A stretch of DNA of 64,000 nt from Candidatus Heimdallarchaeota archaeon (GCA_018238155.1 JABCTZ010000046.1:64001-128000); one strand, 5' to 3'; numbered from the stretch's first letter, positions 860-5,561 are shown. Notes: generated by a model from the letters alone, not told the origin. A program made the numbers and translations.

Positions 860-1065
860 TCCACTTAATTTTCTATCTTTTATTATTATCGCTCTTTTTA
901 TACGGAAACGTTTACTAGATAATAAGGATACTTTTCTAAGAGATTTTACAGATTATCGAACATCATATATATATTCTATTAATCATATAGAATGGATGGA
1001 TATGAATTTATTGCAATTTAATTGCTAACTATTGAATCTTAGAATTGGAAAGAATGGTTTGATGA

Positions 1066-1431
1066 TTGATGGCTAAAATTATGATTGTTGAAGATATGAT
1101 TGTTATTCAGAAGATGCTTAATGAAATTTTAAGTATAAAAGGTCATCAAGTAATTTTTATTGCGGGAACAGGACAACAAGCGATTGATTATTTTATCAAT
1201 CCAAACAATGAATGTCCAGAGATAGTTATTATGGATCATAGAATGCCCGGTAAAGATGGATTAACTTCTTTCAAAGAAGTTTTAGCAATAAATGAAACGG
1301 TCAAGATAATCTTTGTTAGTGCAGATGAAAGTGTACGTGAGGAAGCTCTAGCCAGTGGAGCTTCTGGATATTTAATCAAACCAATAACAATTAAATCGAT
1401 GTTAAATATAATTGATGATTTAGTAACTTAA
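1066..1431 (+). CDS. stand-alone response regulator receiver (CheY-like)
   Basis: IMIVED, IMDHRMPGKDG (phospho-Asp), FVSA and YLIKP motifs. Confidence 0.92.
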   Translation: MMAKIMIVEDMIVIQKMLNEILSIKGHQVIFIAGTGQQAIDYFINPNNECPEIVIMDHRMPGKDGLTSFKEVLAINETVKIIFVSADESVREEALASGASGYLIKPITIKSMLNIIDDLVT

Positions 1432-1440
1432 TCTTACTTA

Positions 1441-2703
1441 CTAAAATAACACTTCTAATGTAAGATTATTTTCTGAAAAATATCTCAATACTCGAGATAA
1501 TAATTTTGGATTCACATCTTCTATAATGCTGATGATAAGTGAAATCTCACCTTCTGAGGAATTATCTAGAAATTGTTGAACTAATTCTTTGTCAGGTAAA
1601 CTCAATAGAAACAAATCAGAGAGCTGATTGACTCTTTCAATCAAGTGATTTATTTGATCACTAATTAGTTGTATCGCTTTGGAATTTTTTAACCCTAAAA
1701 TAGACTTGGATAATTTTGAGCAGAACTGATTTATTACTCCACCAAAAATTTTCCCTCGAGTAAAATCTATTACAATTTTACTGCTAATTGACAGGTGTTG
1801 AAGAGAGGACATCATATCTTCTGTACAATAATCAAGAACATGATTTGAAGCAGGATATTTTTCCATATCTATTAACTCATAAAAAGTTTCATCCAATATA
1901 CCCAGTACATGGATTATTGTATCTTCAGCAGATTTTGAAAATAATGCTTCTGCATCAGTAATTGGTACAGACCATGGATCACTATAGGTTTCTTTGTGTG
2001 GGAGGAATTCTCTCAGAGTTGCTATAGTTATCATAATTTCTTCTTTTGAACCTACAACTAAAATTCGTTCATTTTTTAGTAGTGCGTGTATAATTCTATC
2101 CATGCAAGTAGGAATTTTTCTAAATAAAAAGTCAAAGTCTGCTTCGTGTTCTATCACATGGGGAACTTCTTCATTACAGGATGAACTAGATACCAAATCA
2201 TTTTCAATTCTTTGCTTAATTAATGCTGTTGATTCAGTTGGATCTCTTGTAGAACTATCCAAAACTTCCATTCGGAGAAGTTTAGACAGACGATGTTTTA
2301 TTTGATCAGGTAGCTGATCCTTTGGATCTCCTTGTGTTAACAGGTCATTTGCAATTTCCTTTACAGATGTAGAGATATTCGGAATGGATTTAAAGAGTGA
2401 CATTTGCTCTGATCGATCAACTAAAGTCACTATCCCTAAAGTCCTTTTTCCACCTCTAGCAGTTTCATCATCTACAAAAAAGAAGGTTGAATAAGCAACA
2501 TAGCCTTCATCTACAAATGGAATAACAGATTCAACAAAATCTTCGTGAATAATACCTGTTTCTGTTGTAAGAGATAATGTACTTAGATGAGATTTCATTG
2601 ATACCTTTTCAGCAAACCTAGTATCCAATCCTTCTGAATATAAGCAACCAGGACCAAATTTATCATCAAATCTAATTAAACAGACGCCACGTTTATTCGA
2701 CAG
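1441..2703 (-). CDS. folliculin/SMCR8-like longin-DENN domain protein
   Basis: The frame stays open 25 codons upstream of the tracked TTG (2628), to a CTG at 2703 preceded by GTGGGGT. This adds VCLIRFDDKFGP, a uDENN/longin beta1-beta2 motif. Also has TFFFVDDETARGGKR (FLCN-like) and ALLKNERILVVG (cDENN-like). Confidence 0.72.
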   Translation of the reverse strand: MSNKRGVCLIRFDDKFGPGCLYSEGLDTRFAEKVSMKSHLSTLSLTTETGIIHEDFVESVIPFVDEGYVAYSTFFFVDDETARGGKRTLGIVTLVDRSEQMSLFKSIPNISTSVKEIANDLLTQGDPKDQLPDQIKHRLSKLLRMEVLDSSTRDPTESTALIKQRIENDLVSSSSCNEEVPHVIEHEADFDFLFRKIPTCMDRIIHALLKNERILVVGSKEEIMITIATLREFLPHKETYSDPWSVPITDAEALFSKSAEDTIIHVLGILDETFYELIDMEKYPASNHVLDYCTEDMMSSLQHLSISSKIVIDFTRGKIFGGVINQFCSKLSKSILGLKNSKAIQLISDQINHLIERVNQLSDLFLLSLPDKELVQQFLDNSSEGEISLIISIIEDVNPKLLSRVLRYFSENNLTLEVLF

Positions 2704-2772
2704 GTTTTGTACCCCACTGAATTAATTTCCTAACTATTTTTATTCGTTTTTTAAATTAAAAAACTTTTAGAA

Positions 2773-2937
2773 ATGAGCAAAAGAAGCAACTTTCATTATC
2801 AAGAAAATAAATTAGCGATTTATTTGAATTCTGAAGACAAAGAGTGTATTATTAACTGGTTATGTGAAAAAGCTTTTCCTATAGAAAAGTCATGGTTATT
2901 AGTAAAGGAAAAAAAGATGACCTTTATTTATTATTGA
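2773..2937 (+). CDS. possible small hypothetical protein (54 aa), possibly a frameshifted remnant
   Basis: ATG-initiated ORF MSKRSNF...FIYY in a 390-bp gap. Another frame continues open downstream (IEIVTNKRLAKFIWLDVIL...). No recognisable motif. Confidence 0.25.
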   Translation: MSKRSNFHYQENKLAIYLNSEDKECIINWLCEKAFPIEKSWLLVKEKKMTFIYY

Positions 2938-3095
2938 AATAGTTACGAACAAAAGACTCGCCAAATTCATCTGGTTAGATGTAATTCTTGAAACTTCAAG
3001 AAAATTAGTTAATCAGTCCAATTTTAGAACAGAATTTAAATTTTTTAGAAAGAAAAATAAAAGAGAAATAAAAGCAAATTATTTGCTTCTATTTA

Positions 3096-5561
3096 TTATG
3101 TTTCTGGTAAACCGTCATCCACAACAGCATGAATACTGGTGTGCAATGTGAGCAATATAGTTCCAATCTCGGGACCAATTAATCCATGAGATACGGGTAG
3201 AATTCCAGTGTAAGTTACTAAGACGCCCTTAATACTACCAATTGCTACTTTGAAAGGAGTCATCAGCACCTTGAATGCTGCGACAGGAGTTCCAGGATTA
3301 GCATCTGCGAGTGCAATACCAGAATCGATTTCAGTTTCTGCTGCATTTAATTCAGCATTTGCATTAACTTCATCATCTTGAGAGATATAATATATTGATG
3401 CAAATGTACCATTTACTGCTTTCGTAATGTAATCCATTTCCAAAGCGAATTCTACGGGTTGGAAAGCACTACTAATTGTTTCTGACAGTGCTAGAGCAGC
3501 ATTACTCATGATCGAATAACCCGAGCTATTAGCTTTATCTCCAATTAAAGTTAGTACTGCAGAAGCTTCCGCACCTGCAACAATACCTGCGGTACTATTT
3601 GAAATCGAATAACTCATATTTGCAAATACTTGATCATATTCCATTGTTGGTGAATAGATGTCTTTTGTTGAATTTGTTCCTTCATCATGGAATACATCTA
3701 AAGCTAAAATGATATTTCCAATTGTGCCTCCAATATAACCTTCTTCAGCTATAATTGGTGTGAGCAATGAGAGAGTATCATTTACGAAATCAAAGAATCC
3801 TAAAGCAGACTCAGATTCTTCAACTTCTGCTCTTCTTGTAGAAGTAAATATTGATTTTACAATATCCAATTCTGCAGATGCATTTGTAAGATACGTTTGA
3901 CTTTTGACGAATTGATAACCCAACATCAATCGTACATTTCCTACTAGCATATTGAACATCGCACGAAGTATGTTAGGTGTTGTATCAATTAAATCTAGTA
4001 AGAGCGGGATAAGAACACGATATTCATCTGTTACGTTCATCACCATATCCAAACTATCTGCTACTTGATTCAGTACTTGGGCAATTTGAGCATTTCCTTC
4101 GACATCTCGCATTTCTTCAGGATCAATAGTATTGAGAATTGCATCAGCTGTCACGATATGAGCGAAAACATCATCGAAATACTCATCTAATAAATAATCA
4201 ATATCATTGATTATTCCTTCTACTTGAACTTCTGCTGTAGTTAAATCAGCTTCACTTGGTTTCGCTCCACCAGACATATTGAACATTCCTTGGAATGTAT
4301 CAAAAACTTCCATAAATTCATTATATTGGAAATAAAAACCATCGACTTCTACATCAGAATTATTTGAATTATCAAAGAAGCCATGTCCTAATGGACCAAG
4401 AGCTTGTAAAAGTTCAAATCCGGCAAATATCGTTGCGTTGAAAATGTCAACCACAAATCCATATTGCATTGAAGCAGCTTTCAATAGACGCAAAAATTGT
4501 AAGCGATTTAATCCACGGTAGTTATCATGAGCAATATTGAACCAATAACCTGCGCGATCCAATTGTGCTAATATTGCTTCTGTATCAAGTCCTTCAATAG
4601 AAGAAGAATTACCTTGTACAAATGGCATTGCTATTTCTGCGATATTTGCAGCACCAGCTGCTAGTGAACCACCGATTTGTAATCCACTTGATGTACACAA
4701 GAGTAGCCACGGTATTACTACAAGATTAAGTATAATAGCTATTGCTTGAAATGGTAATAAACACCAGGTCATAAAATTCTTTGCTTTTTTAGTGAGTAAA
4801 TTGGAAAGTAACCAAGAACTTGCAATTACTACTGAAAGCATCATTCCAAACATTATCAATAAATCAAATACCCAAACAAAAGTTGCGTAAACGGCATATT
4901 GCTCGTACATATCAACAAATGTTTGATCTATTGGAATAAAGCTAAATCCAAAAACATCTTCTAACCCCATAGAAATTAATCCTAGTGCATTTAGGAAAAT
5001 CAAGTATGGAGAAAAGAACAAAGTAGGATTTTGTCCTCCTGCGTAAAAGACAATTAATGGTATAAAGAATTGTAAACCAAAAATCAACATTCCACCAAGA
5101 ATACCTTTACCAACCTTTCTAACAAATAAGCCGGGTAAAGTACAACAAATCAATAACAGAACGATTTCAACATAAGCCAACCCAGGATGACTTGATGTAC
5201 CAATAAAGTTGAATATTAACATTACAACGGCTGAAACACCGATTGCAATAAGAACACCAATCCAAAACCATGGACGTTCTTCTTTTGGAGGTCCTCTGCC
5301 TGGAGGTCCATCAACTTGATAATCTTGGTAATAACTGTCACCATAATATTCTTCTTGAGGTGCTTTTACTTCTTGTTGACCTATTTGATATGGATCTTGT
5401 GATTGATAATTATCAGATTGATACGGTTCACTTCCGTATGGGTCTGGTTGTTTCTCTGGAGGAATTTCACTGCCCCAAGAATATTCTTCTTGCTTCTTTG
5501 GGGGGTCTTCATCATCTTCCTCATTATTAAGGATATCAATGTAATAATCTTCTTCTGACAT
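3096..5561 (-). CDS. multi-pass membrane protein with acidic Pro/Tyr/Gln-rich N-terminal tail and large helical C-terminal domain
   Basis: 821-aa ORF: low-complexity N-terminus, about 6-7 hydrophobic segments (aa ~97-310), then a long amphipathic helical region with N-x-S/T sequons. Confidence 0.8.
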   Translation of the reverse strand: MSEEDYYIDILNNEEDDEDPPKKQEEYSWGSEIPPEKQPDPYGSEPYQSDNYQSQDPYQIGQQEVKAPQEEYYGDSYYQDYQVDGPPGRGPPKEERPWFWIGVLIAIGVSAVVMLIFNFIGTSSHPGLAYVEIVLLLICCTLPGLFVRKVGKGILGGMLIFGLQFFIPLIVFYAGGQNPTLFFSPYLIFLNALGLISMGLEDVFGFSFIPIDQTFVDMYEQYAVYATFVWVFDLLIMFGMMLSVVIASSWLLSNLLTKKAKNFMTWCLLPFQAIAIILNLVVIPWLLLCTSSGLQIGGSLAAGAANIAEIAMPFVQGNSSSIEGLDTEAILAQLDRAGYWFNIAHDNYRGLNRLQFLRLLKAASMQYGFVVDIFNATIFAGFELLQALGPLGHGFFDNSNNSDVEVDGFYFQYNEFMEVFDTFQGMFNMSGGAKPSEADLTTAEVQVEGIINDIDYLLDEYFDDVFAHIVTADAILNTIDPEEMRDVEGNAQIAQVLNQVADSLDMVMNVTDEYRVLIPLLLDLIDTTPNILRAMFNMLVGNVRLMLGYQFVKSQTYLTNASAELDIVKSIFTSTRRAEVEESESALGFFDFVNDTLSLLTPIIAEEGYIGGTIGNIILALDVFHDEGTNSTKDIYSPTMEYDQVFANMSYSISNSTAGIVAGAEASAVLTLIGDKANSSGYSIMSNAALALSETISSAFQPVEFALEMDYITKAVNGTFASIYYISQDDEVNANAELNAAETEIDSGIALADANPGTPVAAFKVLMTPFKVAIGSIKGVLVTYTGILPVSHGLIGPEIGTILLTLHTSIHAVVDDGLPET

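Follow-up and report, generated by a model that had tools for sequence, protein, structure and literature searches.

The gene at positions 1441 to 2703 on the minus strand of the DNA analysed here (420 codons, stop codon at 1441-1443) is a real gene, correctly recognised by the first-pass annotation, and is a member of the already published Heimdallarchaeial class of folliculin/SMCR8-type longin-DENN proteins. Taken as a whole, and leaning on analogy with the eukaryotic systems, we read its product as a folliculin-type arginine-finger GTPase-activating protein (GAP) that would act on an Arf- or Rag-like GTPase, start at a CTG codon and be coupled to a CheY-like receiver; we place the probability of this reading at about 60%. 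The window, i.e. the complete stretch of 64,000 nucleotides from Candidatus Heimdallarchaeota archaeon (GCA_018238155.1, JABCTZ010000046.1:64001-128000), has a G+C content of approximately 32% and comes from a genome of 4.08 Mb in 46 contigs with a completeness of 90.7%. The pairing with a receiver gene and the CTG start are what this study adds to the published class, while the evolutionary headline, consisting of the class and its motifs, is already in the literature and not new.

In lysosomal GAP complexes, the catalytic core is provided by folliculin (FLCN), SMCR8 or NPRL2; these complexes control Rag or Arf GTPases and thereby mTORC1, with the arginine fingers located at R164 in FLCN and R147 in SMCR8. 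The origin of such GAPs bears on the rise of eukaryotic nutrient signalling and of the endomembrane system. Proteins with FLCN architecture have been reported in Heimdallarchaea by Liu et al. (2020/21, 10.1101/2020.10.19.343400), who also proposed that Asgard growth is controlled via two-component systems with 'eukaryotic' GAP-type longin regulators and noted that Asgards contain no homologue of the TOR kinase catalytic domain. Furthermore, a GP motif and an arginine finger, arranged in the structure in the same way, were described for Heimdallarchaeial FLCN/SMCR8-type longins, which may be GAPs acting on Arf-related or Rag GTPases of Asgards (Traffic 2025, PMC12290439). The retained catalytic motif, which the first-pass annotation had presented as its notable point, was therefore already published. 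Its overall interpretation is partly supported by our results: the folliculin-type, probably arginine-finger, GAP reading is reasonable but not new, and the label of 'Rag/mTORC1-type nutrient signalling' for this gene goes beyond the evidence.

Translating window positions 1441-2760 yielded an uninterrupted minus-strand frame from 1441 to 2724, which contains all four motifs quoted previously (VCLIRFDDKFGP; EGYVAYSTFFFVDDETARGGKRTLGIVTLVDR; SIPNISTSVKEIANDL; ALLKNERILVVG). The arginine codon claimed at 2455-2457 was found as AGA at 2457-2455 and represents residue 83, the Arg of an ARGG sequence, as counted from the CTG at 2703-2701. The Pfam family Folliculin (PF11704) matched residues 44-124 with 30.2 bits at a cut-off of 23.3, and the orthologues scored between 28.8 and 33.5 bits; the C-terminal part of the window protein gave no significant match to Pfam, and some orthologues showed faint or weak matches to SMCR8_C (PF27109). 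We obtained 42 homologues at E ≤1e-98, and those with a named source were all labelled as Heimdallarchaeota or Asgard group, except for P0034, labelled as Bathyarchaeia. Searching the PDB by phmmer with the single sequence retrieved nothing relevant; with a profile of 27 orthologues, human FLCN was the best sequence at a marginal E-value of 0.04. The nearest ESM-atlas clusters according to the language model were Heimdall PF11704 proteins, C9orf72-like proteins, FLCN and SMCR8.

The fold of the protein was analysed on an AlphaFold2 model built from a 48-row alignment, which reached a mean pLDDT of 81.7 and a pTM of 0.72. DSSP analysis of the model and matches from VIA, a structure search independent of Foldseek, delimited a longin domain at residues 4-124 (2332-2694, minus strand) with the order strand-strand-helix-strand-strand-strand-helix. 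It is followed by a linker of residues 125-189 (2137-2331), which is helical at first and then of low confidence (pLDDT below 50 at residues 152-165 and 170-184) and shows the poorest conservation within alignment A1, and by an alpha/beta DENN-like C-terminal domain of residues 190-420 (1444-2136), which is likewise matched by VIA. The best-conserved motif of the DENN-like domain is F233-L-P-H-K237 (1993-2007), whose first four residues (F233, L234, P235 and H236) do not vary within A1; L230 and P235 form the only nearly invariant columns of the wide 48-row alignment.

Foldseek against the PDB ranked FLCN first (6ulg_L, E 2.3e-8) and a chain of the C9orf72-SMCR8-WDR41-ARF1 complex second (7mge_C, E 4.8e-8), followed by FNIP2, further chains of FLCN, C9orf72 and SMCR8, and then DENND1A/B and DENND10. 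The best VIA match was again FLCN, extending over both domains (6nzd_H, Z 15.8, rmsd 22.9, 302 aligned residues), and two other long matches were 7o2w_A (Z 13.2, rmsd 11.7, 314 aligned) and 6lt0_B (Z 11.3, rmsd 16.0, 288 aligned). These large whole-chain rmsd values arise because the domain orientations differ, and the single-domain matches are tight, as illustrated by a Lokiarchaeal longin (8yqg_B, Z 14.4, rmsd 3.2, 140 aligned), the Lst4 longin (4zy8_C, Z 12.9, rmsd 3.3, 131 aligned), the C-terminal domain of FLCN (3v42_B, Z 11.7, rmsd 3.7, 172 aligned, model residues 184-398 against 343-558) and a chain of the NPRL2-NPRL3 complex (8fw5_B, Z 11.1, rmsd 3.2, 135 aligned). DENND10 (8p0v_M, Z 10.9, rmsd 4.2, 171 aligned) and DENND1A (6ekk_A, Z 8.6, rmsd 4.8, 165 aligned) were retrieved as well. 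Pfam, the AlphaFold2 model, Foldseek and VIA thus agree on a full-length longin plus DENN protein of folliculin type, as had been proposed from the sequence, and the model bears out the longin and DENN folds when compared with FLCN, SMCR8, NPRL2 and DENN structures.

Arg83 (2455-2457, minus strand), the candidate arginine finger, is placed by the model in the beta4-beta5 loop between the strands of residues 68-78 and 86-96. The orthologue-profile alignment (E 0.04, marginal) sets ...tarGg... over ...LARGF... of FLCN and pairs R83 with R164, and R83, G84 and R87 are invariant in all 27 orthologues at 44-85% identity. Profile alignment, conservation and loop position support the proposed correspondence to FLCN R164, with the equivalence itself resting on the marginal alignment and the secondary-structure position. 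The second catalytic-type motif, Gly17-Pro18 (2650-2655, minus strand), lies in the beta1-beta2 turn at the end of FDDKFGP (residues 12-18); 23 rows of A1 extend over the N-terminus, and GP as well as the FD..GP segment is conserved in all of them. As to the expected conservation of the arginine across homologues, it holds for the orthologues but not for the wider archaeal family, where 40 aligned cluster representatives showed GP in 29 and Arg in only approximately 12 cases. The arginine is therefore no family-wide requirement, and Arg-bearing and Arg-less forms coexist, as in the eukaryotic pairs.

Based on these features, the proposed mechanism starts with a soluble protein of 420 residues, translated from the CTG codon, which would use its longin and DENN domains to pair up with a second copy of itself or a paralogue, by analogy to FLCN-FNIP, SMCR8-C9orf72 and NPRL2-NPRL3. 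An Arf- or Rag-like small GTPase would dock on the longin platform, and Arg83 would enter its nucleotide pocket from the beta4-beta5 loop and speed up GTP hydrolysis, while the CheY-like receiver would couple the activity or the location of the protein to a phosphorelay.

DENN proteins are classically guanine nucleotide exchange factors (GEFs), and the protein may instead regulate GTPases without acting as a GAP, either as a DENN-type exchange factor or as a nucleotide-state-specific scaffold for Rab-, Arf- or Rag-like GTPases, with a structural or binding role for Arg83. The C-terminal domain indeed matches the DENN domains of the Rab GEFs DENND1A/B and DENND10 in both Foldseek and VIA, and the arginine is dispensable across much of the wider family. 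In addition, a GEF role has been proposed for the Asgard DENN module (Liu et al., 10.1101/2020.10.19.343400), and GEF action is found in most longin and roadblock platforms (PMC10933270). On the other hand, GP and Arg together are, according to PMC12290439, specific to GAP longins and do not occur in GEF longins or in DENND proteins, the arginine is invariant among the 27 orthologues, and the closest structures belong to three GAP complexes rather than to GEFs. We consider such a non-GAP function rather unlikely and retain the GAP reading.

As to candidate substrates for the putative GAP, the window itself is devoid of GTPase genes, and the orthologue loci examined have no Rag gene as a neighbour either. 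Elsewhere in the source genome, Gtr1/RagA was the best family for two GTPases (112.6 and 81 bits), and a third GTPase scored about equally with Gtr1/RagA and Arf (57.0 vs. 56.0 bits). Rag-type GTPases are encoded at C8:10448, C17:31290 and C39:133768. An Arf-family GTPase of 312 aa on contig C29 (C29:60523-61449, 113.9 bits) is encoded convergently to a receiver-containing protein and beside PAS/receiver proteins. Its 82%-identical counterpart at locus L020 lies two genes upstream of a paralogue of the window gene (P0042 type, see below), and at locus L056, an Arf-family GTPase gene lies on the same strand 15 bp behind the gene for P0059, a distant homologue that has the Arg. Because the GTPase genes found next to relatives were exclusively of the Arf family, the genomic context favours Arf-like over Rag-like partners; the cases are few and partly related, and they point to an Arf-like partner rather than prove one.

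The longin-DENN gene stands alone behind an AT-rich spacer of 390 bp. In relatives this spacer is occupied by an acylphosphatase gene, of which a remnant with stop codons and a frameshift is left in the window (2798-3037, plus strand). A syntenic block consisting of CitC, CitG, two large membrane proteins, acylphosphatase, the longin-DENN gene, the receiver and aconitase subunits is conserved down to 45% identity. In an exhaustive search, the family came to no more than 53 cluster representatives (E ≤0.001). Among 301 Asgard genomes, strong full-length matches (E ≤1e-20) were restricted to the genus of the window, where they occurred in nine of nine other genomes, and two other families contained relatives of approximately 380 aa which matched mainly in the longin part. 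The source genome itself codes for a second full-length paralogue on contig C6 (387 aa, PF11704 24.3 bits, with GP and RGG), a longin-only paralogue (C8:72967-73383, 234 aa) with GP, ARGG and a Cys/His-rich tail, and several proteins with DENN-only matches. The P0042-type genes (44% identity; loci L019, L020 and L047) were initially candidates for orthologues from distant lineages, but this was rejected since both types occur side by side in G123, a genome of the same genus, which identifies them as paralogues; no second copy was detected in the window's genome at its completeness of 90.7%. Receivers flank the P0042-type paralogue on either side, and PAS/GAF/receiver proteins are encoded close by.

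The neighbour facing the 3' end of the longin-DENN gene codes for a single-domain CheY-like receiver of 120 aa counted from its ATG (1069-1431, plus strand; an in-frame TTG is present at 1066), which matches Response_reg (PF00072) with 71.3 bits. The residues D9, D56 and K104-P105, corresponding to the acidic pocket with the phospho-acceptor Asp56 and the conserved lysine, are invariant in nine aligned receivers. Each of the 16 loci with enough flanking sequence has the receiver gene 3'-to-3' to the longin-DENN gene, their aligned 3' ends being 10-48 bp apart, and the source genome contains only 17 Response_reg matches in total. Block synteny was dismissed as the sole cause of the pairing, because a receiver gene of 116-120 aa remains in the 3'-to-3' position at L019, L020 and L047, where all other neighbours differ. 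The trees of receivers and longin-DENN proteins are congruent and resolve the same three clades, and the two pairs present in genome G123 fall into two different clades; the two genes have therefore undergone duplication or relocation together. We found no mention of this pairing in the publications consulted. Genes in convergent orientation are not co-transcribed, which counts against a link between the products of the pair. A search for longer family members (754-2150 aa) with a receiver fused to the longin-DENN part returned none at E ≤0.001, which is weak evidence.

Predicting a complex of the longin-DENN protein with the receiver resulted in a median score of 0.53 (runs of 0.53, 0.59 and 0.00) against 0.00 for the best control. 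This is a weak pass: in the benchmark, 58 of 80 solved complexes attained this mark, as did 2 of 110 mismatched pairs, and scores of 0.60 or under included only 7 of those 80 complexes and both mismatches. Contact agreement between the runs was at least 0%, i.e. none, at a partner pLDDT of at least 78. The prediction lends weak support to a direct binding of the receiver, and a functional link between the two proteins is plausible. A specific form of this link, in which the phosphorylated receiver would bind the folliculin-like protein directly and gate its arginine-finger GAP activity on an Arf- or Rag-like GTPase, is a tentative proposal, and we regard it as doubtful. If true, a prokaryotic two-component input would be wired directly into a small-GTPase switch of eukaryotic type.

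The same observations may be explained by a protein that serves mainly as an output or adaptor of a two-component system, which would bind the phosphorylated receiver without any enzymatic action on GTPases and resemble folliculin by ancestry only. Such a role would fit the receiver gene as the sole constant neighbour, the receivers and PAS/GAF/receiver proteins around the P0042-type paralogue, and the weak pass of the complex prediction. It is at odds with the invariance of the catalytic-type motifs and with the Arf-family GTPase genes adjoining relatives; moreover, it is compatible with a role on GTPases, so that neither excludes the other. As a replacement of the GAP reading, we judge the adaptor role improbable.

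The start codon of the gene needed separate consideration because its frame opens after a TAA (2724-2722) and the first ATG, GTG or TTG thereafter is the TTG at 2628, with the consequence that mechanical ORF calling with these three starts yields 395 aa only. The nearest public homologues are annotated as proteins of 385 aa starting with Met36. Distant orthologues (44-58% identity) consist of 410-430 aa and begin with the sequence M-x-x-K/R-R-G-V-C-L, which aligns with the CTG at 2701-2703 of the minus strand. Alignment at the DNA level showed that most other orthologues start with ATG or TTG at the CTG position or one codon off, and that the window gene and its three closest relatives share CTG as the aligned start (4/4). 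Across all six pairs of these four CTG-clade genes, the dN/dS values were 0.01-0.24 for codons 2-35 and 0.10-0.15 for the remaining codons, which indicates that the 34 codons following the CTG are under purifying selection. The orthologue starts at the CTG position and the low dN/dS in codons 2-35 support the reading of 420 aa, and translation most probably begins at this non-canonical start codon. TTG 2628 was rejected as the start since it is not conserved (CTG in L001) and would delete conserved codons under selection. With a start at the CTG, the public gene models for the clade miss strands beta1 and beta2 along with the GP motif; in practice, these gene calls are 35 residues short.

A putative Shine-Dalgarno-like element, GTGGGGT (2711-2717, minus strand), precedes the CTG by 8 nt; the same heptamer is present upstream of the CTG in L001, L029 and L031 and upstream of an ATG in L026, L027 and L030, and we infer its function from position only. 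Further upstream lies an AT-rich, TATA-like box, TTTTTTAATTTAAAAAA (2747-2763, minus strand), which represents a candidate promoter, because TTTTTAATTT is kept in the four closest loci whereas its flanking bases vary. Public sequencing listings gave no run and no RNA source for window positions 1000-3100. The idea of a decaying gene that has lost its canonical start and yields only a product of 385 aa from Met36, devoid of beta1-beta2 and the GP motif, would agree with the 5' end lacking ATG, GTG and TTG, with the annotation of the closest public homologues and with the neighbouring acylphosphatase pseudogene, but it is very improbable in view of the selection on codons 2-35 in all six CTG-clade pairs, the conservation of the CTG together with its upstream heptamer in all four genes and the frame staying intact through 420 codons.

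Among archaeal representatives, the gene is a clean one of full length that has every catalytic-type motif, and its source genome supplies candidate substrates in the form of Rag-like and Arf-like GTPases as well as the paired receiver as a candidate regulator. Together, these constitute a small protein set for testing Asgard 'GAP longins'. The published Heimdallarchaeial class shares the taxon group, the longin plus DENN architecture, the GP motif and the arginine finger with the window gene, but the group described here is limited to a single genus among 301 Asgard genomes, has a CTG start in its clade and is paired with a receiver.

Compared to eukaryotic systems, the Rab regulators DENND1A/B and DENND10 have the overall longin (uDENN) plus DENN architecture in common with the window protein, yet they score below FLCN against its model. 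NPRL2, which together with NPRL3 belongs to GATOR1 (SEACIT in yeast) and acts as GAP for RagA/B, contains a longin domain with an arginine finger and a GP motif; only this longin domain matches the window protein, as the C-terminal part of NPRL2 differs and contains no DENN domain. SMCR8-C9orf72(-WDR41), which acts as GAP on Arf GTPases (PDB 7MGE, 6LT0, 7O2W, 6V4U), is a pair of longin-DENN proteins with Arg (R147) and GP motifs like those observed here. SMCR8 is much larger than the window protein, for which no WDR41-like partner is known, and C9orf72 lacks the arginine, whereas both full-length paralogues of the source genome possess it. Human FLCN, which functions with FNIP1/2 (Lst7-Lst4 in yeast) as GAP for RagC/D (Gtr2; PDB 6NZD, 6ULG, 8DHB, 3V42), is the best match in sequence and in fold over both domains, at approximately 15% identity. 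It carries an N-terminal Cys/His-rich extension that is absent from the window protein, where the match starts at model residue 4. Unlike FLCN, the window protein has no identified FNIP-like partner and no Ragulator/mTORC1 context, and its relatives adjoin Arf-family GTPases; if the proposed gating by the receiver is true, the receiver would occupy the place of the eukaryotic FNIP/Ragulator/mTORC1 partners.

All four genes of the clade formed by the folliculin-like gene and its three closest relatives (loci L001, L029 and L031) carry CTG at the position of the ATG or TTG start codon (window 2701-2703, minus strand, in the gene studied here). The 34 codons preceding the first ATG of these genes are under purifying selection, and the encoded proteins are 35 residues too short in the public gene calls. 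In the orthologue at locus L018, the conserved N-terminal codons (L018:5867-6022) are out of frame with the remaining gene, which is called as a protein of 399 aa plus a separate ORF of 51 aa. Locus L028 has an intact frame and is otherwise identical; a recent frameshift or a fault in the assembly probably accounts for the break in L018.

The relatives contain an intact acylphosphatase gene between the genes for an 821-aa membrane protein and the folliculin-like protein. Using the L001 acylphosphatase as tblastn query, we detected a remnant of this gene at window 2798-3037 on the plus strand (35% identity), which contains a frameshift and several in-frame stops and ends at its 3' side with the same FRTEF motif as the intact gene.

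The genome of the window codes for a second full-length longin-DENN paralogue of 387 aa (contig C6:75754-76917, plus strand; L012:1420-2583; PF11704, 24.3 bits), which retains both the GP motif and the RGG arginine and is a candidate dimer partner of the folliculin-like protein. It belongs to a P0045-like type more widely distributed than that of the window gene, and no receiver gene was present among its neighbours. A further paralogue of 234 aa (C8:72967-73383, minus strand) has a longin domain of the folliculin type, in which the GP and ARGG motifs are present, and carries a Cys/His-rich, zinc-ribbon-like tail in place of the DENN domain.

On the same contig, a 587-aa open frame (C8:12989-14037, minus strand) combines a Gtr1/RagA-like G domain (79 bits) with an extended charged tail. 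Directly upstream of this frame, and separated from it by stop codons, there is a weak match to the folliculin-type longin domain (E 8.8e-5).

Distant family members adjoin genes for M42/M28-type aminopeptidases in two cases (L057:2812-3891, L058:2966-4195) and for AP_endonuc_2 proteins (xylose-isomerase-like TIM barrels) in three others (L019:4059-5018, L021:6160-7005, L023:1326-2147), possibly hinting at a metabolic link.

Contig C29 (50000-66000, L025) contains the gene for a 312-aa Arf-family GTPase with a C-terminal extension of about 120 aa, convergent to that of a 376-aa receiver-containing protein. Next to them are genes for a receiver of 116 aa and for two large multi-PAS proteins, one of them also with a receiver domain. 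A receiver-GTPase pair of this kind is also present at L020:2234-4314, with an 82% identical GTPase, and lies beside a folliculin-like gene of the receiver-paired P0042 type. At L056:4001-5652 (plus strand), the gene for P0059, a distant arginine-bearing member of 362 aa with an SMCR8_C match, lies 15 bp upstream of a gene in the same orientation that encodes a 182-aa Arf-family GTPase. The arrangement resembles an operon in which a putative GAP is encoded together with its GTPase.
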